Source: a virus
Strand: one strand, 5' to 3'
IMG/VR virus record: IMGVR_UViG_3300030040_000052
Coordinates: 1-42,123 of that record
Length of the DNA: 42,123 bases
Part shown: piece after piece, positions 2,374-27,053 of the stretch
Layout of the letters: every line of letters begins with the position of its first letter
Position numbering within the stretch: position 1 is the stretch's first letter
Notes under the pieces: generated by a model
Databases searched by the model: none
Told to the model about the DNA's origin: nothing
Seen by the model: the letters and a program-made list of their open reading frames with translations, nothing else
Program-made: the position numbers and the translations under genes

Positions 2374-2400
2374 CTGTGCGTAAAAAATCTTAAAATTCAG

Positions 2401-2421: not shown

Positions 2422-2426
2422 CTTTT

Positions 2427-2679: not shown

Positions 2680-2694
2680 AAAGGAGGAAACATC

Positions 2695-3279: not shown

Positions 3280-3283
3280 TGTG

Positions 3284-7653: not shown

Positions 7654-8264
7654 CGGCTGTATTTGCCGTTGTCGATGTGCACGCCCCAGTCGTAGCGGCC
7701 TAGACCGCCCCGGTTGGGCATTTTCTCCGCCTGTACCTGTTCGGCAATTTCTTGCAACCGGGTGGTCGAAATGTTCCCGCCGATGGGGGCAAGGTCAATT
7801 GCCTGTCCGGTCAGGTGCAGGGAGTTCCACACGCCGTCCACATCGGCATTGTGCTGCTTGCAGCGTACACCGGAGTTGACGTTCAGGGGCACACCAGCAC
7901 GGCGGCGTATCTCATCCGCCATGCGGACGGTTTCCTCTGCGGGTTCTGCGGGGAAGCCGTTGCAGTATTTCCCGCCGCACCGGCACCGGAACTCCTCCCG
8001 GGTGAAGTACTTAATGTCGTCCCAAAACGTCCAGGTTTTCGGTTCGCCGCTGCTCTCCGGCTTCTTCACCTTCACCGCCGTACCTGCCACCGCTCCAATC
8101 AACATCTTCTGCGTGGCTGCCCCGGCGATGCCGTCCGGGGTCAATCCATAGTCCGCCTGAAAGCGGCGGACGGCGGCGATGGTGTTTTTACCGTTTGCCC
8201 CGTCAATGTTACCCGGGTCATAGCCTAAGTAAACCAAAAGGCACTGGATTTGTTTAATGGTCAT
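7641..8264 (-). CDS. Endolysin: PG_binding_1 + peptidase M15A-like
   Basis: ATG 8264 (track start 8273 is TTG); LGYDPGNIDGANGKNTIAAVRRFQADYGLTPDG; FRCRCGGKYCNG..SGVRC..HN..SLHLTGQAID. Confidence 0.9.
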   Translation of the reverse strand: MTIKQIQCLLVYLGYDPGNIDGANGKNTIAAVRRFQADYGLTPDGIAGAATQKMLIGAVAGTAVKVKKPESSGEPKTWTFWDDIKYFTREEFRCRCGGKYCNGFPAEPAEETVRMADEIRRRAGVPLNVNSGVRCKQHNADVDGVWNSLHLTGQAIDLAPIGGNISTTRLQEIAEQVQAEKMPNRGGLGRYDWGVHIDNGKYSRWNG

Positions 8265-8320
8265 GTTCACCAATCCTTCTTCGTTATCTATGGATTTTAA
8301 CTAAAGCCCTCTTCAGCTGC

Positions 8321-11700: not shown

Positions 11701-11732
11701 ACGCCGCTACCTCCTTTTTTTACAGAATACCA

Positions 11733-11766
11733 AAGTCCGCCGAGTAATTCTAAACCCGGCGGACTT
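11733..11766 (-). terminator. Hairpin 6 nt after giant ORF stop (partial terminator or RNA stabiliser)
   Basis: AAGTCCGCCG-14 nt-CGGCGGACTT; downstream on minus strand only moderately U-rich. Confidence 0.35.
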
Positions 11767-11771
11767 TATTT

Positions 11772-14700
11772 TTACCGTTTATGCCACGGCGCTTTTTTCA
11801 GGCCGCTTGCTGCATATCCGTTGTCATAGTACAGCGCATCCTTTTGGCTGTCGGAAATCGGAAGGCTGTTAATAAGGGAAAGAATTTCCTTCTTCTTGCT
11901 GCCGCTGTCCGTCTTGCCGTCTCCGTCTGCATCCACGCCGGTGCATTCCGTTCTTCTGCTTCTGTAGTCAGCAAACACATTCGGCTGAATCCCGGTTTCT
12001 TCAATGCTTTTGCCCAGCTCGTCAAGCTCTTTCGTGTACGCAAGAACCTGCTCGCTGCTCAAATCGGAATCCGGGTGCTGCTTTTGCCAGCGGTAGGCGT
12101 TCACAGTTTCTTCTGCTTCCTCCGCGTCCTTGCCGCCATAGCGCACAAGCGCATTTTTGAGCTGCTGTTCCGTGATTTCGCCGTCAATAAACGCTTCCTT
12201 CACTTCGCTGTAGTTTACGTCAAGGTCTTTCTTGCAGCCCCATTCTCGCACGGTTTTTTTTGCGGCATCTTCACTTTTTCCGCCGTACCGGACAAGCATT
12301 TGCGCCGCCTTACTCTCCGTCAGGCTGTTGTTCAGATAAGAATCTCGGATTTCATCGTATTCAATGCCGGTGTCTCGGACGCTGTTCCACTGCGTTACCT
12401 GTTCTTCTGCGTCCTTTTTTCGCATCCCAAGCACCCCGTTCAGCTGTTTGATGGCTGCTGTCCGGTCGATTTCGCCATTCAAATACTGTTCCTTTACCGA
12501 TTCCTTGCTGCCGCCGGGAACCTTCTTCAGCTGCTTTTCAAAGGCGCTTTGAATTTGCTTCCGGTTGAAATTCCCCTCGGCTTCAATTTCGGCAAGAATG
12601 CGTTCCGCCTCTTTCGCATTTCCAGCGGCCTTTTCCTTTGCCGCCTGCCGAATCCGGCTGTCCTGGTCTGCCAGCGCGGTCACAATGGCGCTTTCAAACT
12701 TCTGTTCCGTGGAATAAGTGGTTTTCAACCGTTCCTGTTCTGCCTGACTTCCATTCACAATGGCGTGGTAAAGACGCTCTGTTTTTCCGTTGCTCCCTCG
12801 GAAAATAGCGGGAATGTTTTCCTGAATCCCGTCCCAGATAGCCTTTCCTCTGGTGTAGGAATCGCTTGCTCTGGGTGTGGATACCGTTTCATAGGTGTTC
12901 TTTACCCCTCGCAATTCACGCAGAACATTCTTTAGCGGGATGCCGCCCATGTTCAGCAAACCGGCTGCCGCGTCCAGTGAAGCAATGCCGAATTTCCCCA
13001 GGTTCTCTTTCTTGGCTTCCTCGTCCTCCGGGTCTGTTTCCAGGAATTTCTTCCAGCTGTCAGTTGCTTTTTGGGTTGCGTTGTACATATCCGACACTAG
13101 ACTCATGTCGTTCCGCTCCACGTCATAGCCCTGGACGATGCTCCAAACATCCTTAAAGCCGGGGTAATAGGTGATTGGGTTTACCCCGTCCACCAGTTCC
13201 GAAGCAAGGCTGCTCAGATATTTTTCCAGATATGTCTTTTCTTCATCGTCATCCCGCGCAGCGTATACAAGGCTTGCCAACAGCGAGTTCAGAATCAGTG
13301 CCGCCGCAACCGAAGAGATTTTCTTTCCGGCGGTTTTGAAGTTCTTCCCGCGGATGTCCTGCACCGCACTGCCCATCATATTGATGGTGGTGGTAGGTTC
13401 CGCCATGAAACTTGTCAACATTTTCATGTAAACGCTCTTGCTTCTCATGTTGCCGCTTCTGGAAAACACGCTGTCATACACCTGGGTTTGGGTGATGCAC
13501 CTGGTAAAGAGCTTTCCTGCTTCCGTTTTCAGTGCCTCGCCGTTAAGCCCCGGGTGCTCTGCCTTGGTCTGCCGCTTGGCAGCTTCCCACATGGCAACCC
13601 ATGTGATTTTGTCCATCTGTTCCGGCATCCAACCGCCGAATTTGTCCACGGCGGCCATAAAGCTTTTTCCATTTTCCCCGGAAAGTAGCTCTTGGGTGCT
13701 TCTGCCCATGTCCGTGTCAAACCGCCCGATTTCCTTCAGGCCAACCACCGGCGCATATTTTTTCATTTCCTCCCAGGTTGCGGAAATTCCGCCCGCGCTG
13801 TCCACCTTGGAGCCTACGAAATACTTTGCATCGATGATGGAAAACGCCCGCCCTACCGCGCTTGGCTGCTGAATAGCCACGCTCAGGCTTGCAGATACCG
13901 CCGCCTTCTTGAATCCGCTCAAGAACATATTGTAAACGGTCTCCCGGTTATCTGCCCTTACGCCGCCGTTCACGTCCTTTAGGAAGGTGTCTACATAGTC
14001 CACCGATGCTTCCCCGTGTTTCCGCAGCATCTGCTGCCGGATGCCGTCACCGGAAGTGTTGTAGTTGTACACCCTGTAGAAGTCCTCCATGGGCAGCGCG
14101 AAGTTGTGATACATGGCTGTGTCGTTCACATGGTTTGCCCAGGTTTCCATAAAACCGCGCAGCTCCACAGCGTTGCTGGCGTTCTTGTCCGTGGGCTTCA
14201 TGTGTCCGGCATTTTTCTGGCGGTTGCCGGGGGATTCCTGACTGTCTCGCACCCGCTCAGACCGGATGGCGGAGGATTTAATCGGCCAGTAATCCTTTTC
14301 TTTTGCTTTGCTCACGCCATACAGTGCCCGGCTCACCTCGTTGTTCTGCTCGGCGCACACGGTGGAAAGATATTCCTGCATTTCGTTTGCAAAGGCAATC
14401 TGTTCCGCCGTCAGCCCAAGAACCTGACCGTTTCGGATTTGGATAACCGTTTCCAGCGCCAGAACGTGAGAGGAATAATCCGTGTAATCCTTGCCGTTCC
14501 GCTTGCTCCCGGTGAGAATAAAGCCTCCTTTCGTCAAGTGTTTGAGATACTGCTCCCGCTTCGATGCCGCATACAGGTTCATCCGCTCCTGCAAATCCAG
14601 CGCCACCTTTTCGCCGTCTGCCATTTCCACTTCCACCAGATTGTTTTCCCACTGGTCGAAGTGGTATTTGTCCATACACCCCAGCATAATGGCTCTTGCC

Positions 14701-17700
14701 TTTGCAAAGTCCCGATACCAGCCGTCCTCACCGTTGCGCAGGTTTTCATAGAGCTGCATCATAACGTTGCTTCCCATGCGCTCAAAGGCATAATAGGGCT
14801 TTTCGTTGTTCCAGCTCAGTTTTTCCATTGTTTTCTTTAGCTTTCCCAGCGCCGGTGTCTTGTCCGGCTGTTTTTGGAACTCTGCCATTGCTTGCTTGGC
14901 TGTCTCTGCCCACCCCTGCTTTAAATTTTCGCCGTGGAGCTTGTTTGCATTTCGGATGGTATTCAGGATAGCCGTATAAGCATTGCGAACTGCCTGTAGC
15001 TGCTGGATGTTCAGTTTACCATAGAAACTATCTCCAATGGCTTCTTTGGCATCGGAAATAAACTCAAGAATTTTGTCATTATATTCCTGGGTAAACACCC
15101 CCTTATTGACTTCCGCCAAATCGGTGTATGCCTGTTGCAGCCGCTCCAGGGCATTCTGAACCGTGGCATTTCGCCGTTCCAGCACATTTTGCAGCTTTGC
15201 TTCCGTCTCCGCAATGGCCTGGGCGTTCTTCACCGGGTCTTTCCCCAGCCGTTCCAGCTGTGCGCCGTACCGGGCGATCACTCGGCTGGCGGTCTCCTGT
15301 GCGTCCTGCTGCTTGATTGTAGCAATGGACTGCATTGCCATGGTCACCGCAGGCTGCAAGCTATCCGGCACATACAGCGTCTTTGTGGGGTTCAGCAGCC
15401 GCCGGTTGAGGTCAGTAAGCACCCGCTCCAGCTTAAAACGCTCCTCTGTCTTTCTGGCACTTTCCACCTTGGCCTTTGCCGCTTCCTGCTGCGCCTGCAC
15501 TTTCTTTTCCAGCCTGTCAATATTCCGCCCACTGGTGTCATACTCCCGCAACAGCCGCTTAAATTCCCGTTGCCAGATTGCAGCATCTTCCTCGGTTTTG
15601 GAAAGTTCTTCTTTGATTTTTTCAAGGCCGTTATCCTGTTCCCCGTATTTCCGCAGCAGACGAATAATTTCTTTGCTCATTGCCGCAATCTTTTCGGTGT
15701 AGCTGTCTTCTAGCTTATTCATTTCACGCTGGTGTGCGGTAGCAATCTGCTCCCGTTCGGCTTCATAAACTGCCTTCATAGCCTTCGCTTCCGCATCGCG
15801 CTGATAGCGGTAGTCAGAAAGCGCTTGTTCCACGGCTTTCTTTCCGTCCCTCCGTGCCTGTGCGGCCTCCTGAAGCGCCGCATTGCGCTCCTTTTTCAGC
15901 TTTGCGATTTCCTCTTTCAGCTTGTCAGAAACGCTCTCAACCGGCTTTGCATCCCAGGCCATTGCAACGATTTTTTCAATCAGGTCTTTTCTTTCCGCAT
16001 TTTGATAATATGCCGCTTCCATGTCAGATGTGCTCCTGCTGTCCTTTAGCTTCTGCACCAGTTCCGCAAGTGCTCCAGGCATATTCATATCGGAAAGCCC
16101 AGAATCAAACTGGTCTGCAAACTGCGCCGCTGCCTCCTGCCAGAACTGGTCAAGGATGGTGTTGGCATTCTGGTCAATAATAATGCTCCCGCGAATTGCC
16201 TTCTGAAAATCCTTTACGCTTCCATAGCTGTATTCAATTTCACCAATCTGTCCCTCACTCAGCCGCACACGCCGCTTTGCCATCCAGTCCAGCACTTCCT
16301 GGGCGTATTCATCCCGCTGTTCCTTCCGGTGCTCCTCCAACCAGTCAGCGGCTTTCCCGGCTCGTTCCTCAATCCCATCCCAGGACACATCTGCATCCCT
16401 GGAAATGTAGTTGTAGGTGTCTTCCAGCAGTGCTGCCAGTTCAGTGGTTCTGCCATTGGCGTTCCCCTCGCGGATAAGCCGCGCCGCCAGCTGGTTTAGG
16501 CTGTTTCTATCAAGGGTATAGTCTTTGTTGCCCCGCTTCTGAATCTGGACCAGCTTTTTCAAGTATTGGATTTCCGTCTCCATCCGCTCCATTTGCTCCT
16601 CGGCACTAACCCGCCGGGAGAAGCGAATGTTATCCATTTGATTTATTAGTTGCTGCCGTTGGGCTTCGTTCCCCTCCTCATAGAGCTGGTAGGGGATGCC
16701 AAGTTTACTTAGCTCCTCTAGTAGCCTCTGGCTTGCAGTATCAGGGGCGATTACATTCTTAATTTCATCAAATCCAACCGCCCGGGCAGGTTTCGCTTCA
16801 AAAATGTTCACAGGCATTTGAGAGATGTCGGAAAGAAGCTGTGCAACTTCTTGTGCCGTTTGGGAGTTTACTTCCATGTTGTACTTTGCAAATATACGCT
16901 GTACATTTTCCGGCGTATATCCTCTGCTCTCTCCAATTTCAGAAACGATTTCACCAATGCTATCCATGCGAATAAGCTCGTTGTCTGACCATCTGGATTT
17001 TGCGTTTGCTTCATCAATGGTGCTCATTAGCTTGTACAAACGGTTGCCAAGGTCATCCTGAATATTGCTTATTTGCTCATCGGTCAGATTTTGCAGCCGC
17101 CCTTCCAACTTGTGCATATCCGCAATGCTTTTGAACCGTTCTGATGTGGCAGCACGCAAAGTTTTTACACCGAAAAAACCGGATACATTTTTGGTGTTCC
17201 TGCCATTTTCAGACCGCATAGCCTTTACAATGCCTTCTAGCGTTGCAGCAATGTGTGTCTCCTTAAAAGACCGCCGTCCTCCAGATGGAGTATACCGTTC
17301 TTTCCCATTGTACACACCCTTACTTTTTTCTACGCCGCTGAAAAGCTCTTTTACCCATTCTGCAAATGCGTCCTTGTCAATAGCGGAGTCAACATTCTTT
17401 TTCATAGTTTCGGCATCAACAGTGGTGTATGTTTCTGTCGTATTAGCCGTACCATTTAAATAGCTGCTTAGCCTTCTGAGCACACCACTCATGCGAACTG
17501 TGTTTTTTGTCATTCCGGGGTATGCCCTTTCAAGTTCAGCTCCATGCTCCTCAAGCAGCGTTTTCAGAGGAATATGTTCAAATACTTCCGGCTTTACATT
17601 TCCCAGAACATTCCACACGTTCAGCAGCTTATCTTCTGTCTCGTTGTTAATTGCATTTACAATTCTTTCTTCCTGCCTGGTTTCTTGCTCGATGTGCTTC

Positions 17701-20700
17701 CCTTGTTCCTCCAAGAAAGCAGCTTTCAGCGCATAATTGTTCAGTAGACTGTCAACAACGCCTTTTTCACCGCTCTCACGGTTTAGTCTGTCCTCAATAT
17801 CGTACCGCACCACGTCAAGGTCATGCTGGAAGTATTCGGCAACTTTCCCTTTTAGTTCACCCAGCCGGTTATACACTTTATCAGTTGCCTTTCTGTCTGC
17901 TTCATATTCAATTTTTGGAACCACAGGTGTCCACGCATCAGCAGAATATACCGCATTATAACGGCTCACTTTCGGGTCAATGGTTTCTTTGCCGAATACA
18001 ACAGTAATGTCTCCGAAATTGGTGTGAGGAATCCCCGCCTTGGTGATTGCAATACTCGGCATCGGAAAGCCGCCTAATTTCAGTGTTTTCAGGAACTTTT
18101 CTTCCGTCAAGTTATGAAGCGCAACAAGGGTTTTCTCCTTTTGACCGTTGCGGGAAGATTTTAAAGTGCCCTCCGGGGCGTTATTTTTTCGCCCATCCTG
18201 CAACTGGTAGTTCACCACCGCATCACTGGCGGCATCGGCAAAGGCGTTCAGCGCTTCTTCACTGCTTCGGATGGTGTCTCTTGCCAGCTGGGCAATGCTG
18301 CTGTCCGGGTTCAGCCCCCGGTAGGCTTCCTTCAGCCGTTCCACCAGCCCTTGCAGGAATTTCTTAATCTTCTCCCAAAGGCTCATGTCAGTCTGCTGCA
18401 ACCGTGCAGAAATCCGTTCCATTACGTCCGTGTCCGTCAGCGCCGTTTCCATCATCTCCGCCACAACCTCGCTGTATGCCAGGTCATTCAGTTCCTCGGC
18501 ACTCAGCTCCTTGTAGCCCTGCCGTTTCAGCGCTGCCGCCTTGGCGGCAATCAGCTCATTGACATTCACATCGGTTCCCACGGCTTCAAACAGGATTTCC
18601 GTAAACCGGTGGAATTTTTCAGGACTGAACTCCTCCACAAAATGGGTAAACTCATGGCTCAGGGCAAAGGCCATCACACCCTGACCGTCTGCACCGGCAT
18701 TCAGGTCAACCCAAATGCTTCCGTCCTCCAGGTAAATGCTGCCGTTTTCCATTCCGGCATTCCGTTCTTTTTCGGTGCTGGCATAAACGGTAATGTTCAC
18801 TCCCATTTCCGAAAGCAGCCGTGCCGCATCCATGCCGCTCTTTTGCTGCTCATTCAGCGATTCAATATTTTTGGCGCTGTCCTTCACCGTCAGGCTGCCT
18901 TTCTGTGCCGCGTGCTCTCCCCGGTCAATTGTCTGCTGCTTCTGCCGGTTTTTTGCCCTCTCGCTGTCTCTGCCAGCCTCCCAGGCAGTTTGCCGGGTAG
19001 CTTCATCCAGCCGCATTGCGTTGCTGTCCCGTCCTATGGCGTTCATGGCAACGCCGTTTCTGCCCGCGTTGTAGGCATCCAGTACTGCCACCGCGAAATT
19101 GGAATTGCTCAGTTGACTGTTTTTGGATGCTTCCAGAATGGTGTTTCCGGTCTGGGCATCAACCCCGATGGTTTCAATGGCCTTAAAAAGCCGCGCTGTC
19201 CCATAGCTGCCGAATTTCACATCCTTGGCGTTTACCTGTTTGCCCTCGTCCGTCAGCAGCACCATACCGCCGCCACCGGCGGAAGCAATTTCCGAGATGT
19301 TTACCGGGCTGCTGTCGCTGATAAGATAGCTCTGCCCTTCGGCTTCTTCGTCATAGTCAAAGCTGCTCCCATCCACGGATTGTTTACCCAGATTATACGC
19401 CAAATCCACCTGTCCAACAGTAAGAGAGCTAATCCCTTCAATGTCAGCAATGTCGATTCCTTCCTGCCCGGCCTTATAGGCTTTTGCCATCTCCTCCACA
19501 TATCTGCCTCGGCTCTGCCCTGGGTAATACATCTGCTCGATTGCAAAAGCGTGTTCCTTCCCAAAGATGCTTTCCGCCGCTTCACTCAGCTGGTCATGAA
19601 CCGCCGCTTTGGCGCTCTTTTCCGTTTCCGTCTCCCGCGTGCCGAAAATTTCCGGTGCCAGGGTATAGGTTCCGATATTGCGCACCCAGTTGCTTCCGCC
19701 GCTCTTCGAGCCAGCACGGCTGATGTCGTTCAGCAGCGTGTCTGTAATCTCCTGGTTTTGCGCCATAGCATACCGTTCCGACATGGTGAGTTTTTCACCC
19801 GTCAACTTTTTCACAATGCCGCTGGCAATCAGCCCCGGATTTTTCTCTGCACCCAGCTGCTCTGCTTGTGCTGCAATCGCTTCTGTTACATTGGAGACAT
19901 CCTGCTTTGTCAGCGCCGCAATGTTTTCCTGATAGATGTTGGTTAGCTTGGCGTAGTCGCTGCCCCGCTTGCCTAAATTCCCTTTTTCTGCTTTTGACTG
20001 TAATTTTGGAACGTCCTTATTTTTGGAGCCCAGCTCCACCGCATTTTTCAGAATTTCGTCATAGCTGCCGCTGTCCACCATATCTTTGCCGATTTTTCTT
20101 GCATCACTGGTGGTAGCATTCACAATGCCGCCAGTGCCGCCCATCAAGCCGCCGGAAACAGCGCCGCCGTAGAACGACCAGAACGTGTCAATGGCCTGGT
20201 TAATAAATGCCTGTTTTTGGGCTTCCTCCCGGCTCATCCCCCCCTGCTCAACAAGCGCCTGGATGTTGTTCCGATAGTCGCTGTTCTTTCCTTCCAGCAG
20301 GGCATCCGTAATCAGGTTTGCAATGTCCGAGGCCACTTCTTCGCTGCCTTCGTTCAGCGCCTGGATAAGCGTTTTCTTTGCCCAGTCGCGGAAACCGGTT
20401 ACGTTGCCCTCCAAAAACTGGCTTGTGAAGTATTCAATGGAATATTTCTCCGTGGCCGCTTCAATCAGGCCGGAGGCAATTGCGCCCAAGCCAATCTGTG
20501 TGCCGGAAGCGCCTTTTTCGTATAGCTCCTGCGCCCGCTGGCTTGCCGCAGAACTACCCATAATCCAGGTGTACCCATTTCCAAACAGCGTAGCACCCAA
20601 TGCGCTGTCAGCGCCGGACATAACCGCCTGATAGGTGTTTGCCGCCACCGCGCCCCAGAATGGAGAATCAATACTGTCCACAATCTCCTGCGCCGTAATG

Positions 20701-22358
20701 CCGCGCACGGTGTTTGCATAATCAGAAAGTTCATGCCCGGCGGAGTAGGGATTGAATTTTCCGGTAATGGCGCTGCCCACATCCGCCACAGCGGAGGAAA
20801 CGCCGCCAAAAATATTGGCAGGGACAGTAGCCGCATTCATAACCGCCTTGCCAATCGCACCGGATGTGCCGTAGGTAATCTCTGTGTTGTAATTTTTGAA
20901 ATCGCTGATTCTCTTGTCAAGGGTCACTTCCAAATCGCTCAGATATTGTTTGGCTTCGCCCAGTCCGTAACGATTCAGAAGGAAATAGTACATTTTCAGC
21001 TCGTTGTCGGCAAGCCAGTTGTACCGGCTGATTGAAGTACCGCTCAAAGCAGCCTGTGCGTCATATTCGGTTTTATTCGCAAGGTATCGGCTGACCGGGT
21101 CATTCCGCTCAACCAGCCCTTTTTCCATGCCTGCCTCAGCATCTTCCTGAAAACCGTCCATATACCGGTATGTTTCATACCGCTGTACCTTGTCTTCCTG
21201 CGCTGCAATCAGCCCGTTGCGTTCGCTGGCATCGGCATCATTTTTAAGATTGTAATAAGCTGCTTTTGCCGCATCATAGTTTTTCTTGGCGCGGTTATAT
21301 GCCGCCGAATATTGCGTAATATCTTCTCCGGTAGAATTTGCCATATTGTTTTGCGCATCTTCAAGCTGCTGCTGCGCCTGGGTAAACGCAAGATAGGCTT
21401 CTTCAATCTTCTGCTGTTTTTCTTCCTCCGCCGCGTTTTGTTCTTCTCCTGTGCTGTCAGCCTTTGTTGCCTCTTTTTTCGTCTGCTTCGCGGCATCGTC
21501 CAGCTGCTTTTTCGCTGCCTCAAGGTTTTTCTCGGCTTCCAGATACCGCGCCTCTACGCCGTCAAAGTCACCGTCTGGCACATTGTAGTAGTCGTTTTCC
21601 GCAGCCTTAAAGGCATCTTCCGCAGCAGCATATGAAGCTTTCGCCCGTGCAAGCGGGCTGCTGTAGTCAGTGGCACTGATTTCCGGTACACCACCCGGCA
21701 GCTGTGAACCAAGTGCCTGATACTGTTCAGTGAAGCGTTCCCACCGGGCTTTTGCGTCCGCATAGTCGCGGCTGTCCGGCTGATAGCGTTTCTGGGCATC
21801 CTCCCAGTATTTCCGCTCTTTTTCGCTCTGTTGCAGCAGTTTTGCCGCGTCAGTACGCAGTTTGATGGTTTCTGAACTTTCCTTTGTGCCGGTCACATCC
21901 TGGTTGGCATATTTCTTCGGCTCAAGCAGCGGACGTTTCGGCTTTTCTGCCTGTGAGCCTTTCAGAAGTGTGTCGATTTTGGAAATCCGTGTGCTGTTTT
22001 GCTGCCAAAGCGGGTCTTTGGAAGATAGCCATTTGTTTTCATTTTCCAGCTGGCTTTTCTCGTCTTGAAGAAGCAAAGCATCCTTATAGCTTTTCAGCTG
22101 CCCCAGGTAGTCGTTAATCCGCTGGTTCACCTGGGGTGTGCTTCCGGCTGAAAACTGTGTAGCGGTAGAAGGGCGGCTTCTTGCACGCAGCTGCTCTGCG
22201 TAGGCATCGTCCATGGATTTCAGTTTGGAAACAGCCGCCCGATCCAGTGTATTTGCAACAAACTGTTTTGCTTGGTTATATCGTTCTGAACCGCCGCTTG
22301 TCGTTGGCTTCGCCAATTGCTGTGCAACAAATTCTTCTGCGTTTTTCTTCCTGGACAT
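11772..22358 (-). CDS. Giant 3,528-aa internal-virion / ejection 'polyvalent'-type protein
   Basis: Uninterrupted ORF; ATG 22358 7 nt after GTGAGGG (track start 22364 is TTG); position between nozzle-like and fibre genes; Gly-rich hydrophobic block, HEFTH site, coiled coils, C-terminal repeats. Confidence 0.9.
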   Translation of the reverse strand: MSRKKNAEEFVAQQLAKPTTSGGSERYNQAKQFVANTLDRAAVSKLKSMDDAYAEQLRARSRPSTATQFSAGSTPQVNQRINDYLGQLKSYKDALLLQDEKSQLENENKWLSSKDPLWQQNSTRISKIDTLLKGSQAEKPKRPLLEPKKYANQDVTGTKESSETIKLRTDAAKLLQQSEKERKYWEDAQKRYQPDSRDYADAKARWERFTEQYQALGSQLPGGVPEISATDYSSPLARAKASYAAAEDAFKAAENDYYNVPDGDFDGVEARYLEAEKNLEAAKKQLDDAAKQTKKEATKADSTGEEQNAAEEEKQQKIEEAYLAFTQAQQQLEDAQNNMANSTGEDITQYSAAYNRAKKNYDAAKAAYYNLKNDADASERNGLIAAQEDKVQRYETYRYMDGFQEDAEAGMEKGLVERNDPVSRYLANKTEYDAQAALSGTSISRYNWLADNELKMYYFLLNRYGLGEAKQYLSDLEVTLDKRISDFKNYNTEITYGTSGAIGKAVMNAATVPANIFGGVSSAVADVGSAITGKFNPYSAGHELSDYANTVRGITAQEIVDSIDSPFWGAVAANTYQAVMSGADSALGATLFGNGYTWIMGSSAASQRAQELYEKGASGTQIGLGAIASGLIEAATEKYSIEYFTSQFLEGNVTGFRDWAKKTLIQALNEGSEEVASDIANLITDALLEGKNSDYRNNIQALVEQGGMSREEAQKQAFINQAIDTFWSFYGGAVSGGLMGGTGGIVNATTSDARKIGKDMVDSGSYDEILKNAVELGSKNKDVPKLQSKAEKGNLGKRGSDYAKLTNIYQENIAALTKQDVSNVTEAIAAQAEQLGAEKNPGLIASGIVKKLTGEKLTMSERYAMAQNQEITDTLLNDISRAGSKSGGSNWVRNIGTYTLAPEIFGTRETETEKSAKAAVHDQLSEAAESIFGKEHAFAIEQMYYPGQSRGRYVEEMAKAYKAGQEGIDIADIEGISSLTVGQVDLAYNLGKQSVDGSSFDYDEEAEGQSYLISDSSPVNISEIASAGGGGMVLLTDEGKQVNAKDVKFGSYGTARLFKAIETIGVDAQTGNTILEASKNSQLSNSNFAVAVLDAYNAGRNGVAMNAIGRDSNAMRLDEATRQTAWEAGRDSERAKNRQKQQTIDRGEHAAQKGSLTVKDSAKNIESLNEQQKSGMDAARLLSEMGVNITVYASTEKERNAGMENGSIYLEDGSIWVDLNAGADGQGVMAFALSHEFTHFVEEFSPEKFHRFTEILFEAVGTDVNVNELIAAKAAALKRQGYKELSAEELNDLAYSEVVAEMMETALTDTDVMERISARLQQTDMSLWEKIKKFLQGLVERLKEAYRGLNPDSSIAQLARDTIRSSEEALNAFADAASDAVVNYQLQDGRKNNAPEGTLKSSRNGQKEKTLVALHNLTEEKFLKTLKLGGFPMPSIAITKAGIPHTNFGDITVVFGKETIDPKVSRYNAVYSADAWTPVVPKIEYEADRKATDKVYNRLGELKGKVAEYFQHDLDVVRYDIEDRLNRESGEKGVVDSLLNNYALKAAFLEEQGKHIEQETRQEERIVNAINNETEDKLLNVWNVLGNVKPEVFEHIPLKTLLEEHGAELERAYPGMTKNTVRMSGVLRRLSSYLNGTANTTETYTTVDAETMKKNVDSAIDKDAFAEWVKELFSGVEKSKGVYNGKERYTPSGGRRSFKETHIAATLEGIVKAMRSENGRNTKNVSGFFGVKTLRAATSERFKSIADMHKLEGRLQNLTDEQISNIQDDLGNRLYKLMSTIDEANAKSRWSDNELIRMDSIGEIVSEIGESRGYTPENVQRIFAKYNMEVNSQTAQEVAQLLSDISQMPVNIFEAKPARAVGFDEIKNVIAPDTASQRLLEELSKLGIPYQLYEEGNEAQRQQLINQMDNIRFSRRVSAEEQMERMETEIQYLKKLVQIQKRGNKDYTLDRNSLNQLAARLIREGNANGRTTELAALLEDTYNYISRDADVSWDGIEERAGKAADWLEEHRKEQRDEYAQEVLDWMAKRRVRLSEGQIGEIEYSYGSVKDFQKAIRGSIIIDQNANTILDQFWQEAAAQFADQFDSGLSDMNMPGALAELVQKLKDSRSTSDMEAAYYQNAERKDLIEKIVAMAWDAKPVESVSDKLKEEIAKLKKERNAALQEAAQARRDGKKAVEQALSDYRYQRDAEAKAMKAVYEAEREQIATAHQREMNKLEDSYTEKIAAMSKEIIRLLRKYGEQDNGLEKIKEELSKTEEDAAIWQREFKRLLREYDTSGRNIDRLEKKVQAQQEAAKAKVESARKTEERFKLERVLTDLNRRLLNPTKTLYVPDSLQPAVTMAMQSIATIKQQDAQETASRVIARYGAQLERLGKDPVKNAQAIAETEAKLQNVLERRNATVQNALERLQQAYTDLAEVNKGVFTQEYNDKILEFISDAKEAIGDSFYGKLNIQQLQAVRNAYTAILNTIRNANKLHGENLKQGWAETAKQAMAEFQKQPDKTPALGKLKKTMEKLSWNNEKPYYAFERMGSNVMMQLYENLRNGEDGWYRDFAKARAIMLGCMDKYHFDQWENNLVEVEMADGEKVALDLQERMNLYAASKREQYLKHLTKGGFILTGSKRNGKDYTDYSSHVLALETVIQIRNGQVLGLTAEQIAFANEMQEYLSTVCAEQNNEVSRALYGVSKAKEKDYWPIKSSAIRSERVRDSQESPGNRQKNAGHMKPTDKNASNAVELRGFMETWANHVNDTAMYHNFALPMEDFYRVYNYNTSGDGIRQQMLRKHGEASVDYVDTFLKDVNGGVRADNRETVYNMFLSGFKKAAVSASLSVAIQQPSAVGRAFSIIDAKYFVGSKVDSAGGISATWEEMKKYAPVVGLKEIGRFDTDMGRSTQELLSGENGKSFMAAVDKFGGWMPEQMDKITWVAMWEAAKRQTKAEHPGLNGEALKTEAGKLFTRCITQTQVYDSVFSRSGNMRSKSVYMKMLTSFMAEPTTTINMMGSAVQDIRGKNFKTAGKKISSVAAALILNSLLASLVYAARDDDEEKTYLEKYLSSLASELVDGVNPITYYPGFKDVWSIVQGYDVERNDMSLVSDMYNATQKATDSWKKFLETDPEDEEAKKENLGKFGIASLDAAAGLLNMGGIPLKNVLRELRGVKNTYETVSTPRASDSYTRGKAIWDGIQENIPAIFRGSNGKTERLYHAIVNGSQAEQERLKTTYSTEQKFESAIVTALADQDSRIRQAAKEKAAGNAKEAERILAEIEAEGNFNRKQIQSAFEKQLKKVPGGSKESVKEQYLNGEIDRTAAIKQLNGVLGMRKKDAEEQVTQWNSVRDTGIEYDEIRDSYLNNSLTESKAAQMLVRYGGKSEDAAKKTVREWGCKKDLDVNYSEVKEAFIDGEITEQQLKNALVRYGGKDAEEAEETVNAYRWQKQHPDSDLSSEQVLAYTKELDELGKSIEETGIQPNVFADYRSRRTECTGVDADGDGKTDSGSKKKEILSLINSLPISDSQKDALYYDNGYAASGLKKAPWHKR
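11907..11939 (-). other. DxDxDG calcium-binding-like motif GVDADGDGKTD near giant ORF C-terminus
   Basis: Hand translation of comp(11907-11939). Confidence 0.5.
12075..12497 (-). repeat. Three tandem ~46-aa protein repeats in giant ORF
   Basis: VKEQYLNGEIDRTAAIKQLNGVLGMRKKDAEEQVTQW / IRDSYLNNSLTESKAAQMLVRYGGKSEDAAKKTVREW / VKEAFIDGEITEQQLKNALVRYGGKDAEEAEETVNAYRW. Confidence 0.7.
18642..18656 (-). other. Zincin-type HExxH (HEFTH) codons in giant ORF
   Basis: comp(18642-18656) = CAT GAG TTT ACC CAT, context AFALSHEFTHFVEEF. Confidence 0.6.
20085..20867 (-). other. Gly/Ala/Ser-rich hydrophobic block of giant ORF (about aa 500-760)
   Basis: e.g. VPANIFGGVSSAVADVGSAITG, GAIASGLIEAA, FYGGAVSGGLMGGTGGIV. 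Confidence 0.55.
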
Positions 22359-22368
22359 ATCCAAACCC

Positions 22369-23349
22369 TCACTTCAATTTTTTAAAGTAATCTTCCAAAA
22401 TCTGCGCCTGTTTCACCGCGGTATGTGCTCTGCCGGAGGAAATGCCGTTCTTTTTCAGCGCATCGTAAACCTCAGAAGGTGTATAGCCAGCTTTCATCGT
22501 TTCTTTTGCTGTCTCAACCACGGAACCGGTTTTCACCAGTTCCACATTTTTCTGCTCCTTCGGCTGGCTCACGGTTCCTCCGCCGCCGGAATAGCCGCCG
22601 GTCTGTGGTTTTGTCCGCGCAAGAATCTCATTGATATACTGGCTGTTATACCCGGCAGTCTTTAGCAGCTCCTCGTTGGGGGTTACTCCGATGCTCAGCA
22701 GGTAATCCACCTGCCCCTGTGCAAGCTTCTGCTCGTTTTGGCTGACAGTGTATTGATAGTTCCGCTCGTTGGCAAACTGGTTATAATCCCTGTCATCCTG
22801 GTTGCCAATCAGGTTATATTGGTTGTACAAGTCCTGCCCTTCCTGGGAATACTGGTCATAAGCCGCCTGGTATAGCTCTGGGATTTTCGCGGTCAACTGC
22901 TGCAAATATCCCTCATACGCTTGCTGACCCGCATTTTGAGCGTAGCTGTTGCCATAGCCGCCGGTCATGGTTGCCGCCTGCCCCATGGTGTCCTGCATTG
23001 CCATTCGCCCCTGACGCACATATTGGTCTTTGTACATCTGGTAAAGCGCATCCGCATTCACGTCATACTGAAATGGCTGCCGGTTGGTGATTTTGTCCAG
23101 AAGTCCATTCAGCTTTTCCGTCCACTTGGACTGGTAAGAGCCGCCGGTGCTTTCAAGTCCCTGCTGCAAAAGCTGCTGGGCATTTGCAACATTGGCGTTT
23201 GCCTGTTGGCTTTGGGGCTGCTGAACATACTGCGTTCCCTGGTTCTGCTGCACCGGCTGGCTTTGCTGGTTCTGCTGTACCGGCTGCTGGTTTTGCACAG
23301 GCTGTTCCAGCATCTTTTTCTTGTCGTCAACGGTTTTAAACGTTCCCAT
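22369..23349 (-). CDS. Gln-rich internal virion protein (326 aa)
   Basis: ATG 23349 after GAAGGGAGA; QPVQNQQPVQQNQQSQPVQQNQGTQYVQQPQSQQ N-terminus. Confidence 0.75.
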   Translation of the reverse strand: MGTFKTVDDKKKMLEQPVQNQQPVQQNQQSQPVQQNQGTQYVQQPQSQQANANVANAQQLLQQGLESTGGSYQSKWTEKLNGLLDKITNRQPFQYDVNADALYQMYKDQYVRQGRMAMQDTMGQAATMTGGYGNSYAQNAGQQAYEGYLQQLTAKIPELYQAAYDQYSQEGQDLYNQYNLIGNQDDRDYNQFANERNYQYTVSQNEQKLAQGQVDYLLSIGVTPNEELLKTAGYNSQYINEILARTKPQTGGYSGGGGTVSQPKEQKNVELVKTGSVVETAKETMKAGYTPSEVYDALKKNGISSGRAHTAVKQAQILEDYFKKLK

Positions 23350-23494
23350 TGTTATCTCCCTTCTGCTGGTTCTGCCCCTTTTCAAGCTGTTCAAGCGCAT
23401 AATTCAAATCCTGCACCAGCGCGTAAAGGTATTTCGTCAGCTGCTCCACCTGCTGTTGTGTGCTTCCCTGCACATTCGGGAATCTGAGCTTCAT
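23336..23494 (-). CDS. 52-aa small virion-module protein
   Basis: Below track cutoff; ATG 23494 overlaps upstream TGA (TGATG); MKLRFPNVQGSTQQQVEQLTKYLYALVQDLNYALEQLEKGQNQQKGDNNGNV. Confidence 0.5.
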   Translation of the reverse strand: MKLRFPNVQGSTQQQVEQLTKYLYALVQDLNYALEQLEKGQNQQKGDNNGNV

Positions 23495-25239
23495 CAAAAT
23501 CTGTCGCTTCCTTCCATGATTGTTTTGACAATAGAATAAATCTTTGCGTCACCGTCACCAACCAAACGGAGCCGAAGCGTGTCGCACCGGCGTGGCCTGA
23601 TTGGAACGCTGAAGCTTTTCAGCCCCATGCCAAAAGCCGTGCAAAGCTTCACCCATTCTTCATCCTGGTCATATTGTGCGAAAAATTCAATGCGGGTCTG
23701 TTCTCCTGCCCGCATCCGAACGGAAATTTGAGAAAGATACTTTCTGTCAGGGCTGGATAGCCCCAGGTCTCCCGTTTCCGCCATCCATTGAACGCTTGTT
23801 TCCCCTGTATCGCCGCTTCCCAAAAGCGTGATAATGTTCCTGTCAACCGCGTCAACCGCGTATAGCTCGCCCTCCAGGCTGGCAAAGGCGCTTGCGTGAA
23901 GCGCATCTTCCCGATGCCACATTCCTTTTGCCGTGTCGTAAACGAATAGCGCCCACTTGCCGCCGCTTTCCATGCTAATGTAGTACTTGTTCCCGTGTCC
24001 TGCCGCCACTGCATTCCCATAGGGTTCTGTTCCCAGTGCTGCCGACACTTCTACCGGGAAAGAGCCGTCAAAGGCACACACGCCGTTCCTGGATTTATAA
24101 AAAAGCGTCTCATTGACAATTGCAAGGCTGTTCCCGCACCCCGCCTGAACGCCTCTCAGCGCCGTTGTCTGAATCTGGTATTGGCTTGGCATACTGCCAT
24201 AAATTTTATGCACGCAATTTTCTTTGAAAAACAGCGGGTAACCCAGGTGGGCAGCAGCGCCGGTAAACGCGCCGTCCGTGCCGCAGCTGGCGGCATAGCT
24301 GTCCGTGCTTAGTCCCCTGAAATCATTCCAGTTTCGGAAATCACCCAGCTTACAGGCATAGATTTCGTTCACCGTCTGTCCGTTTGCTGCCACGCCGTAC
24401 CGGCATCCCCAAAGCCTGTTTTCTGATTCAATTACGAAATCCATATTGGGGATTTTCCGGCTCACGGTAATAGTGCCCGCTTGAATCGCCGTCTCGCCCA
24501 AAAGCCCCACAACGGTAATCCAGTCGTTTCCTTTCGACCAGATTGTGTGGTTTCCATTCAAGTTTTCTAATCCAGGCACGGTTACGCCGGTGATGGAAAC
24601 GCCGTCATACTGTGAAAATCCAGCCCCGATTCCGTCCGCACTGATTTTGACGTAGGTGCTGCTGATTGTGACCCATGTTTTCGTAGAAGCGGTGTACCGT
24701 TTCAGGGCATTCGGCTTGCCGGAGGTGTCCAGCCAATATTGCAAATCCTTTGGTTCTGCCGGTGCTGTCTCAGACACGCTCACACCGCTGATTTCTCCGC
24801 CGTCAATACTGCACAGGGAAAAATGGACATTCCCGCTGCTGGTAAAGCTGGCTTCTATCTCGCCGTATTGGCTCAAGTCCTCGGTGTTCAGCCATTTTTT
24901 GTCCGGGAAAATAATCACATAAGCGCCCATGGATACAAGCCGCTTTGGGTTGTCCTCCGCCGCCGTACTCAAACCCATGGGAACCGTGCTTTCGCCGTAT
25001 ATAAAATTTCTCCCGTCCACATATCCCAGCTTTTCTTTGGCAATCAGGCCGTTGGGACTTGCGGGCTTTGCATACACGCCCCTTGCTTTCCGGGGAGACA
25101 GCACCGGGTAGCTGTCCGATGTCAAGTTTTTCATGTCATAAAATTCGCCGTTTCCAATCCGCAGGTTGTGGTTGTACCCCCGGAACTCCTCCACCACCTC
25201 CCGGCTGGAAGCCGCCGCCGCCACCGTAGGATAAATCAT
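23494..25239 (-). CDS. Tail nozzle/tubular-like protein (581 aa), function by position
   Basis: TTAGGAGGACGGT-ATG; beta-rich; follows adaptor-like gene as gp12 follows gp11 in T7. Confidence 0.7.
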   Translation of the reverse strand: MIYPTVAAAASSREVVEEFRGYNHNLRIGNGEFYDMKNLTSDSYPVLSPRKARGVYAKPASPNGLIAKEKLGYVDGRNFIYGESTVPMGLSTAAEDNPKRLVSMGAYVIIFPDKKWLNTEDLSQYGEIEASFTSSGNVHFSLCSIDGGEISGVSVSETAPAEPKDLQYWLDTSGKPNALKRYTASTKTWVTISSTYVKISADGIGAGFSQYDGVSITGVTVPGLENLNGNHTIWSKGNDWITVVGLLGETAIQAGTITVSRKIPNMDFVIESENRLWGCRYGVAANGQTVNEIYACKLGDFRNWNDFRGLSTDSYAASCGTDGAFTGAAAHLGYPLFFKENCVHKIYGSMPSQYQIQTTALRGVQAGCGNSLAIVNETLFYKSRNGVCAFDGSFPVEVSAALGTEPYGNAVAAGHGNKYYISMESGGKWALFVYDTAKGMWHREDALHASAFASLEGELYAVDAVDRNIITLLGSGDTGETSVQWMAETGDLGLSSPDRKYLSQISVRMRAGEQTRIEFFAQYDQDEEWVKLCTAFGMGLKSFSVPIRPRRCDTLRLRLVGDGDAKIYSIVKTIMEGSDRF

Positions 25240-25248
25240 ACCGTCCTC

Positions 25249-25623
25249 CTAAAAAAGCATCCGTCTTACCGCCGTTACTGGCATATGCTCCCGGTTATAG
25301 GCCGCCGCATAAGCTGTATACAAAGTGTTGTACATGGTAATTTCTGCGTTATATTTGTCAAATTCACCGTTTGCAAAGTCAATCTGTGCCGCAAGGTAGT
25401 GAATATATGCTTCGTCATAGGGGGCGGGAATCAGCAGCGTTGTGTCAATCGCCGTGCCCGCCGTGTATCCGTCAAAACCGGGGATTGCTGCCCCTTCATG
25501 GGTGTCAATCACCTGCGCTTTAACCGTCCTGTCCAGCCTGTCAAGCCATGCAATTTTCTCAGCATCCGTATAAGTGTTGTATTTGAGGCTGTCCAGCCGT
25601 TCCAATGCTTCCTGAATGGTCAT
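25249..25623 (-). CDS. Head-tail adaptor-like protein (124 aa), function by position
   Basis: ATG 25623 7 nt after GGAGGG (track start 25644 is TTG). Confidence 0.65.
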   Translation of the reverse strand: MTIQEALERLDSLKYNTYTDAEKIAWLDRLDRTVKAQVIDTHEGAAIPGFDGYTAGTAIDTTLLIPAPYDEAYIHYLAAQIDFANGEFDKYNAEITMYNTLYTAYAAAYNREHMPVTAVRRMLF

Positions 25624-25676
25624 GTCGTTTCCCTCCAATTCCAAAAAAGGGGAGCATAAAGCCCCCCAATTTTGTG

Positions 25677-25961: not shown

Positions 25962-27053
25962 TTAATTCAGCTCATCGGTTGCGGAGAAGGTGGAGCAGCT
26001 CATAATGCGCAGCACTCGTTCGGTGTACAGCACCGTTGTGCCAAACTCGAACTTGTAGCCCACGGTGCTGAACTGGTTCAGGGGGCCTCCCACTTCTTCC
26101 CGGCTCTTGATGATGGTTTCCAGGTTCCCGCCCTCCGGGTCAATGATGCCAAACGCATCCTTACCGAACATATAGCTGGCATAGGTAGCGCCGTTGGCCT
26201 TGTTCTTGTAGGTTTCTCCACCCAGCACCGGGGCAAACACGTTTTCGATAAACCGCACGCCGTGCAGCTCACCGATTTCGCCGTTGAAAATTTCACTGGT
26301 GGCAGCGTACTTGTGCGCCTCGATCCAGTCCTTGCAGTTCCGCAGGTCGTAAGCCACAGAGGGGGACACCACGCAGTAGTATTTTCCGTTGATGGTGGGC
26401 ACGCGGTTCATCTTCATAATGCGCACCGCCTTGGCAACCATCAACGGAGTGAACATGCTCATCACCGTGGCGCTGGCCTCCATGGTGGCGCAGCTGGTAG
26501 GGGTAGATGCAACAGCGTTGGTTGCAAGGGTGATGTTGTCGCAGTACAGCACGTTGGTATTGGTCAACAGGCTGTCTCGGATAAGCGTCTCCTGGGTCTT
26601 GCTGGCAGATGCACCCATTTCTTCCGTTGCGCCCAGGATGGTGTTGTCGTATGCGTGGAACTCCAGGATGTCAGAGATGGCGGCAAAGGTGCCAAACTGG
26701 TCAATGGTCGCCACCTTGCTGCTCATGCCGAACTTCTGGCCGGTGGGGATCACGCCTTCCTGAAGCTTGGAGGCGTTGGCAAAGGTGTTCCACTTTCTCC
26801 ACTCCATGGTAGTGCCGTGGTTTCTGGGTAGGTTCTGCTTCTTGGCGAATTGGCCGTAATAAGCTTCAATTCTGGCATTTTCCAGCAGTTCCGTGTCGTA
26901 GAACGTCTTCATTTCGCCAGACATGGTGTTCTTGGTGTCGAAGTTCGTCTTCTCCCCGGTATAGGCGTTGACATAGGTGGTGCTTGCGTTCACCAGCGTA
27001 CCGGCTTCCGCAAACAGCTGAAGATTCAGGGTAATCATTTTGATTTCAAACAT
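25962..27053 (-). CDS. Major capsid protein (HK97-fold, N4-gp56-like from memory) with L27-type leader
   Basis: GGAGGAGAATAAAAA-ATG; N-terminus MFEIKMITLNLQLFA/EAG; FYDTELLENAR..EWRKW..LQEGVIPTG pattern. Confidence 0.9.
   Translation of the reverse strand: MFEIKMITLNLQLFAEAGTLVNASTTYVNAYTGEKTNFDTKNTMSGEMKTFYDTELLENARIEAYYGQFAKKQNLPRNHGTTMEWRKWNTFANASKLQEGVIPTGQKFGMSSKVATIDQFGTFAAISDILEFHAYDNTILGATEEMGASASKTQETLIRDSLLTNTNVLYCDNITLATNAVASTPTSCATMEASATVMSMFTPLMVAKAVRIMKMNRVPTINGKYYCVVSPSVAYDLRNCKDWIEAHKYAATSEIFNGEIGELHGVRFIENVFAPVLGGETYKNKANGATYASYMFGKDAFGIIDPEGGNLETIIKSREEVGGPLNQFSTVGYKFEFGTTVLYTERVLRIMSCSTFSATDELN

Follow-up and report, generated by a model that had tools for sequence, protein, structure and literature searches.

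A giant predicted polyvalent protein with an apparently exchangeable effector cassette in a 42-kb temperate phage genome

Iyer, Burroughs, Anand, de Souza and Aravind (2017, J Bacteriol, PMC5512222) have studied the polyvalent proteins of phages and proposed that they are packaged in the capsid, injected and autoprocessed by a metallopeptidase (MPTase) domain. The virion RNA polymerase (vRNAP) of phage N4, which is packaged and injected, itself bears such a domain (PMC5512222). Here, we explored a protein of this kind in a viral DNA of 42,123 nucleotides (nt), positions 1 to 42,123 of IMG/VR record IMGVR_UViG_3300030040_000052, which is called the window. One minus-strand open reading frame (ORF) of the window encodes 3,528 amino acids (aa); we refer to its product as the giant protein and to its large homologues as giants. 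An earlier note, made from the letters alone, had taken it for a mosaic, probably injected virion protein that delivers effectors. This view is supported by a PBECR5 domain, by domains that are swapped among relatives, by a zincin domain and by the place of the gene in the late operon, and packaging is suggested by analogy.

Several described proteins come close to the giant protein. Gp47 of the Stx2 podophage phi24B (2,811 aa, with LPD and metallopeptidase domains) was abundant in virion proteomics and absent from the cryo-electron microscopy map, and its authors proposed that it is an encapsidated ejection protein (bioRxiv 10.64898/2026.04.10.717836). Prophages phi1 and phi4 of Clostridium clostridioforme LM41 carry an 8-kb ORF which makes up ~20% of the genome, is similar to LPD3 and was interpreted via Iyer et al. 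(PMC11318856). Likened here by description only, these ORFs represent the same observation in temperate gut-Clostridia phages with a shorter product (~2,700 aa). In phage PTXU04, a 2,198-aa putative polyvalent protein is required for infection (PMC11879866). The class has thus been described, a like observation has been published for other prophages, and the giant protein itself is already deposited in NCBI nr as a "nuclease" only (DAI84780.1, "MAG TPA: nuclease [Caudoviricetes sp.]"); the general phenomenon is not new. New here are the carrier/slot/carrier map, the size of the family, the N4-like synteny and a candidate cleavage motif.

The six-frame ORF listing gave a single minus-strand ORF at 11772..22364 with a start codon ATG at 22358, which lies 6 nt 3' of GTGAGGG and 10 nt past the stop of an upstream 343-aa gene. 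Translation of 11772..22358 (minus strand) gave 3,528 aa and a stop codon without internal stops, which confirmed the uninterrupted 10,587-nt ORF reported in the earlier note. The window begins and ends with an exact 99-nt direct repeat (1-99 = 42025-42123), most simply the assembler overlap of a circular contig. We therefore take the window as a circular assembly that represents a complete genome of 42,024 unique bp. The giant gene takes 25.2% of it, and the phage carries an integrase, as expected from the claim that a quarter of a temperate genome is spent on one ORF.

An exact copy of the protein was found on each of 10 independent contigs (20-50 kb) of various origins; one of these, a 44.2-kb contig of a Hadza gut assembly, carries the same neighbour genes as well. 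A search for syntenic homologues, which had been proposed earlier, found more than 20 IMG/VR contigs of ~40-45 kb whose longest ORF is an uninterrupted homologue of 2,777-4,629 aa. Because the exact protein occurs on 10 contigs and intact homologous ORFs occur in diverged loci, chimerism or a frameshift of the assembly is excluded; the giant ORF is a real gene. A 15-bp stem-loop (11731..11768, minus strand) begins 4 nt past its stop codon and is the strongest terminator-like hairpin across 7-26 kb, with a weak T-tail. Long antisense ORFs were also seen within the giant gene at 18351-19946 (plus strand, 531 aa), 11781-12935 (plus strand, 384 aa) and 14016-14840 (plus strand, 274 aa). The strongly skewed composition of the gene (AT skew about -0.25) probably accounts for them; they are of the type that misleads gene callers, as in the closest relative (see below).

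The layout of the giant protein (Table 1) rests on scans against Pfam and PHROG, on composition, on block-wise comparison with relatives and on two AlphaFold2 (AF2) models. Only PBECR5 reached the Pfam threshold, and the whole protein had no match in NCBIfam or among PDB sequences. About 85% of its length (the N-block, C1 domain and C-module) has no Pfam model, in line with the earlier impression that most of it matches nothing nameable. The profile phrog_22978 (function unknown; 3,513 positions) aligned collinearly in 4 stretches (E = 3.9e-302), with aa 2246-3269 placed on profile positions 2298-3276. The block containing HNLTEEKFLKTLKLGGFPMPSIAI, which the earlier note had linked to very large polyvalent proteins of Firmicutes phages and conjugative elements, turned out to be Pfam PBECR5 (PF18814; 171 bits against a cut-off of 25, E = 5.2e-50), a signature polyvalent domain and a predicted RNase. 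In this match, aa 1400-1580 (nt 17619-18161) align to profile positions 5-182 of 239, and the call agrees with the precomputed annotation.

Judged by its sequence, the giant protein belongs to the phage polyvalent proteins sensu Iyer et al. They define the class by at least two conflict domains in one protein and by location; here, PBECR5 stands together with an invariant HExxH zincin, and orthologous giants carry further signature domains. TerL, portal and major capsid genes lie upstream on the same strand, and the 42-kb circular genome also carries an integrase and an endolysin. The giant protein resembles their proteins in the many conflict domains of one giant, in the zincin MPTase as a hub, in the PBECR, ART-PolyVal, MuF_C and LPD domains of the family and in the virion-gene neighbours. 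It differs in its collinear arrangement of carrier, single slot and carrier and in its border motif, neither of which is described in the main text of that paper.

A zincin-type site, HEFTH at aa 1235-1239 (nt 18642-18656, minus strand), had been noticed by eye and proved to be an invariant HExxH. Of 45 homologous segments, with identities as low as ~20%, 44 contained HExxH and the remaining one is truncated; the motif was also invariant in 12 diverse giants. In an alignment of 39 sequences (19-70% identity), only G1206, H1235, E1236, H1239 and A1294 were invariant. E1297 (nt 18468-18470), conserved in at least 90% of the 39 homologues, is a candidate third zinc ligand, and the resulting HExxH...E pattern would be that of gluzincins. 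Pfam MPTase-PolyVal (PF18818) matched 9 of the 39 domain homologues (best E = 7.2e-5), and two further metallopeptidase families, DUF6782 and Peptidase_M78, matched 6 each. The AF2 order of elements in this region (helix H31-45, strands E50-53, E68-70 and E76-79, helix H87-103; predicted local distance difference test (pLDDT) 62-79), that is, a helix, three strands, the HExxH helix and further helices, parallels the order of the core that Iyer et al. described. The family profile gave spurious helical matches only among PDB sequences. By transitive homology and motif invariance, we accept aa 1140-1400 as a predicted zincin.

Then, the block alignment of the giant protein (residues marked q) was examined against 33 viral loci. 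Two parts were conserved, ~q445-1400 and q1910-3526, and the centre did not align, which put the variable part at aa ~1400-1910. In L001, the closest relative, the flanks are 59-61% identical and aa ~1400-2170, hence the cassette, are missing. The central segment of 9 relatives held ART-PolyVal in 6, LPD3 in 2, PBECR3 in 1 and MuF_C in 1. Among 12 diverse giants, ART-PolyVal was found in 7, MuF_C in 6, and PBECR5, C5 DNA methylase, LPD23 and LPD3 in one each; by these counts the PBECR5 cassette is a minority payload. It recurs as a unit of ~510 aa in P0026 (71% identity), P0031 (~45%, over a longer alignment) and L021 (30%). The giant protein is best read from these alignments as a conserved carrier of ~2,700 aa with one apparently swappable slot.

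Two observations were made on the form of this gene elsewhere. In L001 (5128-13831), it is split into two overlapping ORFs of 1,607 and 1,354 aa that are joined in the variable region, which reflects either a real frameshift or a sequencing error; in the deposited gene calls, antisense products (plus strand, 189 aa; minus strand, 947 aa) stand in place of the first ORF. A 121-kb Hadza gut contig (L075, 10001-16754) encodes P0022, a truncated polyvalent protein of 1,441 aa, whose start lies 40 aa ahead of HExxH and whose end corresponds to aa 2616. P0022 abuts spoIIIAH, and behind P0022 come a 185-aa gene, an integrase, a helix-turn-helix (HTH) repressor and radA. About 37 protein clusters share its boundaries with differing cassettes (ART, PBECR3, PBECR5, LPD3 and MuF_C). 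A locus of the P0022 type may represent either a small integrative islet or a remnant that has been domesticated.

The N-block is the most widely conserved part of the family, and no Pfam match was found for it. In an exhaustive HMMER search, the N-block matched 1,541 clusters (50% identity) with E<=1e-3, of which 1,037 had E<=1e-10. Most of the best 150 matches were proteins of 2.5-4.7 thousand aa (kaa), and the match started nearly always around residue 250-520. At aa ~500-760 the N-block is Gly/Ala/Ser-rich with low charge (10% charged residues over aa 501-600). The earlier note had likened this block to membrane-inserting ejection or tape-measure proteins; the block itself is present, but the membrane-inserting reading is weak (maximum Kyte-Doolittle value over 19 residues 1.13; many conserved acidic residues). 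In front of it, the N-terminal region (26-37% D/E/K/R over aa 1-400) is conserved in close relatives only, with 59% identity to L001 from aa 69.

Behind the cassette, the first domain of the C-terminal part could be aligned to L002-L005 from q1910 and to L015 and L018 over q1918-2164. The following K/E/A/Q-rich region is common to shorter chromosomal polyvalent proteins (39% identity to P0022 over aa 2176-2616) and was modelled as long helices (H2-250); a K/E/A-rich stretch lies at aa ~2100-2300. The tail contains three ~38-aa helical repeats (aa ~3285-3425) and a DADGDG site resembling a Ca loop (aa 3476-3481, nt 11916-11933), and ends in the motif I..L.L(T/S)..QKD.L....G(W/Y) (family consensus). 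The level of hydropathy typical of transmembrane (TM) helices was passed by one segment only, aa 3014-3032. The charged N-terminus, the Lys/Glu/Ala coiled-coil stretch and the C-terminal TM helix, repeats and DxDxDG site had all been read by eye before and were recovered.

The C-module was modelled over aa 2246-3269 from 8 sequences (pLDDT 67.6, predicted template modelling score 0.54) and was almost wholly helical. Foldseek found no counterpart of it in the PDB (best E = 0.047, template modelling score <0.1). In BFVD, it had 53 matches at E<1e-3, the top ones at E = 5e-36 to 1e-10 with template modelling scores of 0.4-0.58. Nearly all listed matches were to C-terminal pieces of very large phage proteins, of gut and other uncultured virome origin, annotated among others as nuclease, PolyVal ADP-ribosyltransferase, MuF C-terminal domain, LPD-containing, type I restriction enzyme and N-acetyltransferase. 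These matches indicate that the C-module is a widespread, uncharacterised C-terminal module of phage polyvalent proteins. In pattern scans of contigs, the 8-sequence C-module alignment succeeded, and a single N-block sequence or a two-sequence alignment found nothing. Megablast of the ORF against GenBank phages found nothing, and tblastn with aa 530-3528 against deposited phage genomes found only two unannotated human-faecal fragments.

A short motif marks the borders of the exchangeable region. The pattern [RQK][YF]S.R occurred in 121 copies in 124 giants against 18.2 expected from shuffles (6.6-fold enrichment), and the extended consensus was D-[IV]-[RK]-[YF]-S-x-R-[DEN]. Many giants (L002-L072, P0069-P0218) carry it 1-5 times, almost only in the variable centre and at the cassette borders. 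In 22 giants in which both anchors could be recognised, the stretch from HExxH to the beginning of the C-module held 32 copies (1.18 per kaa) and the remaining parts 1 copy (0.021 per kaa), with a median spacing of 338 aa. The PBECR5 cassettes of P0026 and P0031 are bracketed exactly by two copies, and relatives have EGVQYSQR, EGVRYSLR or NVRYSAR at the border of zincin and cassette. The Ser and Arg positions are encoded by many synonymous codons, which indicates selection on the peptide and not on a DNA joint; a DNA recombination joint was ruled out on this ground. The motif was absent from phi24B gp47, N4 gp50, and the large proteins Page_20 and API480_16 of Bacillus phage Page and Paenibacillus phage API480. 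The words 'linker' and 'processing site' do not occur in the main text of Iyer et al. (PMC5512222), and 'cleavage site' occurs once, in a reference title; by these counts, that text describes no cleavage motif. Tentatively, the border motif could be the cleavage site of the in-cis zincin.

Our best explanation, with a probability of about 0.68, is that the giant protein is a polyvalent protein with a conserved carrier and an exchangeable payload that is packed in the virion and injected. Its observed parts are the ORF, the identities of the domains, the invariance of the carrier, the swapping of the cassette, the enrichment and placement of the motif, and the synteny. For packaging, ejection, cleavage at the motif and the RNase target, we propose the following course. 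The giant gene would be transcribed late together with the head and tail genes, and a few copies of its product would be packed in the capsid of a temperate, podovirus-type phage of gut Oscillospirales. The protein would be ejected via portal and tail along with the DNA, and the zincin would cut it at the D-[IV]-[RK]-[YF]-S-x-R linkers. The freed RNase cassette of ~58 kDa would then act in the cytoplasm of the new host on RNA-based defences or host RNAs. The carrier parts would serve incorporation into the capsid and possibly passage through the envelope. It may be explained that the producer cell tolerates the RNase if the enzyme is inactive until cut or is masked by the ~330-aa extension.

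The steps of this explanation differ in strength. The position of the gene and the precedents of phi24B gp47 and N4 gp50 make it quite probable that the protein is packed in the capsid and leaves with the DNA. The chances are even that the zincin processes the polypeptide, and they are equally balanced, once packaging is granted, that the freed PBECR5 cassette cleaves host or defence RNAs early in infection. Cleavage at the border motif is somewhat less likely than not, and a part of the carrier in crossing the envelope, which one TM-like helix and weakly hydrophobic Gly-rich segments would suggest, is possible, with the odds likewise somewhat against it. A further and on balance unlikely extension would make the N-block, zincin and C-module an undescribed self-processing delivery chassis of Oscillospirales podophages of ~42 kb, a very large and wholly uncultured clade (over 1,000 clusters of proteins at 50% identity). 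Such a chassis would offer a single central slot, bounded by the D-[IV]-[RK]-[YF]-S-x-R linkers, for an RNase, ADP-ribosyltransferase or DNA methylase, and these linkers would be cut after injection by the in-cis zincin.

A number of points weigh against the proposed explanation. Pfam MPTase-PolyVal (PF18818) did not match the giant protein itself at E<=1, and the zincin was not recovered from the PDB by Foldseek with the AF2 model of aa 1140-1920, a poor model (pLDDT 53, and below 45 over the PBECR5 part), nothing being found below E = 0.5; the AF2 alignments were shallow, with homologue searches that gave 4 proteins for N-block plus zincin and 18 for the zincin alone. The upstream motif of this copy, TLKSSR, is degenerate, which makes release of the cassette at that end uncertain. 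A protein of 390 kDa must share the capsid with 42 kb of DNA. The carrier has no similarity to characterised ejection proteins, N4 gp50 or the large proteins of Page and API480, and by tblastn with aa 530-3528 no cultured phage in GenBank has a detectable homologue.

An invariant carrier of ~2,700 aa beside a payload of ~500 aa would also suit a protein that works mainly as an ejectosome or tail extension. It would build a trans-envelope conduit for DNA, its zincin would digest the cell wall or act on envelope proteins, and the cassette would be a dispensable passenger. The gene stands where T7, P22 and N4 encode internal proteins, the phi24B authors read gp47 in this way, the polyvalent protein of PTXU04 is essential (PMC11879866), and one TM-like helix and several weakly hydrophobic Gly-rich segments are present. 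However, every examined relative with a resolvable centre carries an intracellular-type enzyme (RNase, ADP-ribosyltransferase or DNA methylase). The giant protein also has no fold or sequence match to a known ejection protein, lysozyme or transglycosylase, and only a single segment reaches the TM-like level. We consider such a main function rather improbable; it overlaps with delivery of a payload by a carrier and does not exclude it.

Quite improbable, too, is a late cytoplasmic or lysis-released multi-enzyme that stays out of the virion and serves host shut-off, superinfection exclusion or toxicity to competitors. Truncated relatives of the P0022 type do persist in bacterial chromosomes outside virion modules, but the gene lies between tail-adaptor-like and distal tail genes and is kept there in all syntenic relatives. 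Analogous proteins are virion components (phi24B gp47; N4 gp50, PMC5512222), and the N-terminal sequence is not signal peptide-like.

A divergent vRNAP like N4 gp50 or crAss-like gp66 was also considered, on account of the size and genomic slot of gp50, the N4-like capsid protein and a DADGD string at aa 3476, and it is effectively refuted. In agreement with the earlier failure to see polymerase motifs, Pfam, NCBIfam, PDB-sequence, BLASTP and hidden Markov model (HMM) searches gave no polymerase similarity, and the family HMMs miss gp50. The DxDGD string lies 50 aa from the C-terminus in what looks like a helical, repetitive stretch and is not conserved across the wider family, and a temperate phage with an integrase can use the host RNA polymerase. 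DADGDG was rejected as a polymerase metal site on this context and non-conservation. The length, the Gly-rich hydrophobic stretches and the two overlapping ORFs of L001 might recall a giant fibre, a tape-measure protein or an artefact of assembly or frameshift, but the conservation data refute these readings. Tail tube, sheath, chaperone and tape-measure families were absent from the structural genes scanned, and the relatives by capsid protein are podophages; the giant protein is helical and enzymatic instead of beta-rich, and identical copies on 10 contigs stand beside intact ORFs in dozens of diverged loci.

Returning to the explanation by carrier and payload, the comparison with phi24B gp47 is the closest in kind. 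Both are giant polyvalent proteins of temperate podoviruses with HExxH metallopeptidase domains and a large share of the genome. The family HMM aligned to aa 1524-1608 of gp47 including HEIIH (E = 2.8e-4 in a four-sequence search), a match confined to the zincin core. Gp47 lacks the N-block, C-module and border motif, its host is Gram-negative, and its gene lies at the far genome end and not in an N4-like slot. Exchangeable payloads are also known from MuF-fused polymorphic toxins of temperate phages, which Jamet and colleagues (2017, BMC Biol) reportedly described as a head-associated carrier with exchangeable toxins, presumed to be injected. These are small two-part proteins with a C-terminal toxin, whereas the giant protein has an internal payload, two large carrier parts and a protease.

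The giant protein has the same size as N4 gp50 (3,500 aa), as the earlier note remarked, and also the same genomic slot. Both genes stand downstream of the portal gene, the major capsid gene and four or five small or medium genes, and the capsid proteins are homologous. The N4 order is portal gp59, gp58, gp57, major capsid protein gp56, gp55, gp54, gp53, gp52, gp51 and vRNAP gp50; the gene order of the window parallels it, which puts the giant gene in the vRNAP slot. The giant protein has no polymerase domain, and the phage is temperate with 42 kb, in contrast to the lytic N4 with 70 kb. BLASTP, phmmer and the family HMM detected no similarity between gp50 and the giant protein. Bacillus phage Page (Page_20, 1,679 aa) and Paenibacillus phage API480 (gp16, 1,631 aa) also have one very large gene ending the structural module, and neither product had BLASTP or family-HMM similarity to the giant protein. 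Homology to Page_20, API480_16 and N4 gp50 was rejected on these results, and they were kept as positional or functional analogues. T7 gp14/15/16 and P22 gp7/20/16 are, like the giant gene, encoded in the late operon of podoviruses; the ejection proteins, Page_20 and API480 gp16 are positional analogues only.

If gut Clostridia phages commonly spend a quarter of the genome on one injected multi-tool protein, as these data suggest, the anatomy of such a protein has now become concrete, with fixed carrier parts, a payload position and a candidate cleavage code. With the carrier/slot map and the motif, the processing model of Iyer et al. can be tested directly. Some 2,700 residues of phage protein that are widely conserved lack a family model and a solved structure that matches. 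In practical terms, the findings are of interest for the prediction of anti-defence payloads in gut viromes and, on a longer view, for bringing proteins into hard-to-transform anaerobes. The unlikely self-processing chassis, if true, would be the bacterial-virus counterpart of a polyprotein with a defined cleavage code, re-programmable for gut anaerobes.

The window represents a temperate, podovirus-type phage, and the giant gene lies in the late structural operon of its podovirus-type module (Table 1), which agrees with the internal or ejection-gene slot assigned to it before. The order of genes upstream of the giant gene is the same in L001 and L079. The Gln-rich 343-aa protein, whose N-terminal half is of low complexity (QQPVQQNQQ type) and whose position is conserved in both loci, may be another internal or ejection protein. 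The nearest relatives of the capsid protein are unannotated human-faecal phage fragments, and its nearest cultured relatives are podophages (Paenibacillus API480, the Bacillus megaterium Page group and Streptomyces podophages). The resemblance of the capsid protein to N4 gp56 seen earlier was recovered by BLASTP (E = 7e-9, 21% identity), and the phmmer score of 26.6 bits equals that of its best PDB match, 9e99_A; the capsid protein can be called distantly N4-gp56-like by sequence comparison.

A scan of one genome per prokaryotic species found 38 homologous loci, nearly all in gut metagenome-assembled genomes (Oscillospiraceae, Faecousia, Acutalibacteraceae and Ructibacterium). Several of them, on contigs of 78-198 kb, are probably integrated prophages. 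The occurrence of these loci makes a member of the Oscillospirales the most likely host, and the phage probably infects gut Oscillospirales.

Table 1. Positions of the parts of the giant protein and of other genes in the window.
Feature	Residues (aa)	Position (nt)	Strand	Remarks
Charged N-terminal region, probably helical	1-440	21039..22358	-	From composition
Conserved N-block	441-1139	18942..21038	-	Most widely conserved part of the family
Zincin-type metallopeptidase domain (predicted)	1140-1400	18159..18941	-	
Degenerate border motif TLKSSR	1398-1403	18150..18167	-	Zincin/cassette border
Variable effector cassette	1401-1909	16632..18158	-	PBECR5 (predicted RNase) and ~330-aa extension without match
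Canonical border motif NIRFSRR	1910-1916	16611..16631	-	Cassette/C-module border
Conserved domain opening the C-terminal part	1917-2170	15849..16610	-	No family match
K/E/A/Q-rich long-helix, coiled-coil-like region	2171-2480	14919..15848	-	40-43% charged
Conserved C-module, mostly alpha-helical	2481-3270	12549..14918	-	Small beta domain at aa ~2575-2631
TM-like helix	3014-3032	13263-13319	-	Kyte-Doolittle 1.87
C-terminal tail	3271-3528	11775..12548	-	Repeats, DADGDG, terminal motif
Small HTH protein			-	First in the late gene order
TerL		30539-31963	-	
Portal		28598-30532	-	
413-aa protein			-	Between portal and major capsid gene; phrog_13908 match
Major capsid protein		25962-27053	-	
89-aa protein			-	After the capsid gene
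Upstream late genes		22369..25644	-	Order 131-aa, 581-aa, 52/53-aa, Gln-rich 343-aa
131-aa protein			-	phrog_12105
581-aa protein			-	phrog_511, annotation 'internal virion protein'
52/53-aa protein			-	Between 581-aa and 343-aa genes
Gln-rich 343-aa protein		22369-23400	-	15% Gln; directly upstream of the giant gene
Five genes without family match			-	Between giant gene and endolysin
PG_binding + M15 endolysin		7641-8273	-	
Tyrosine integrase		3910-5040	+	

Some minor observations were made on the other genes. The integrase has an N-terminal zinc-ribbon (weak matches to Zn_ribbon_3/DZR), which is unusual among phage integrases. A metallo-beta-lactamase-fold protein is encoded at 38305-39027 (minus strand; Lactamase_B_2, E = 4.8e-10), with a sub-threshold match to the anti-Pycsar nuclease Apyc1 (E = 0.009), and may represent a cyclic-nucleotide-degrading anti-defence gene. 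At 35642-36983 (minus strand), a gene for a Dam-type N6-adenine methyltransferase overlaps that of a PAPS-reductase-domain protein, which may have a role in DNA modification. A 644-aa SMC/SbcC-like ATPase is encoded at 39619-41553 (minus strand), and an SbcC-like protein is also present in Bacillus phage Page, a capsid relative. A G+C-rich hairpin with a T-run lies at 25649-25667 (minus strand), just 3' of the 89-aa gene behind the capsid gene; Page and API480 have an annotated terminator directly behind the capsid gene.

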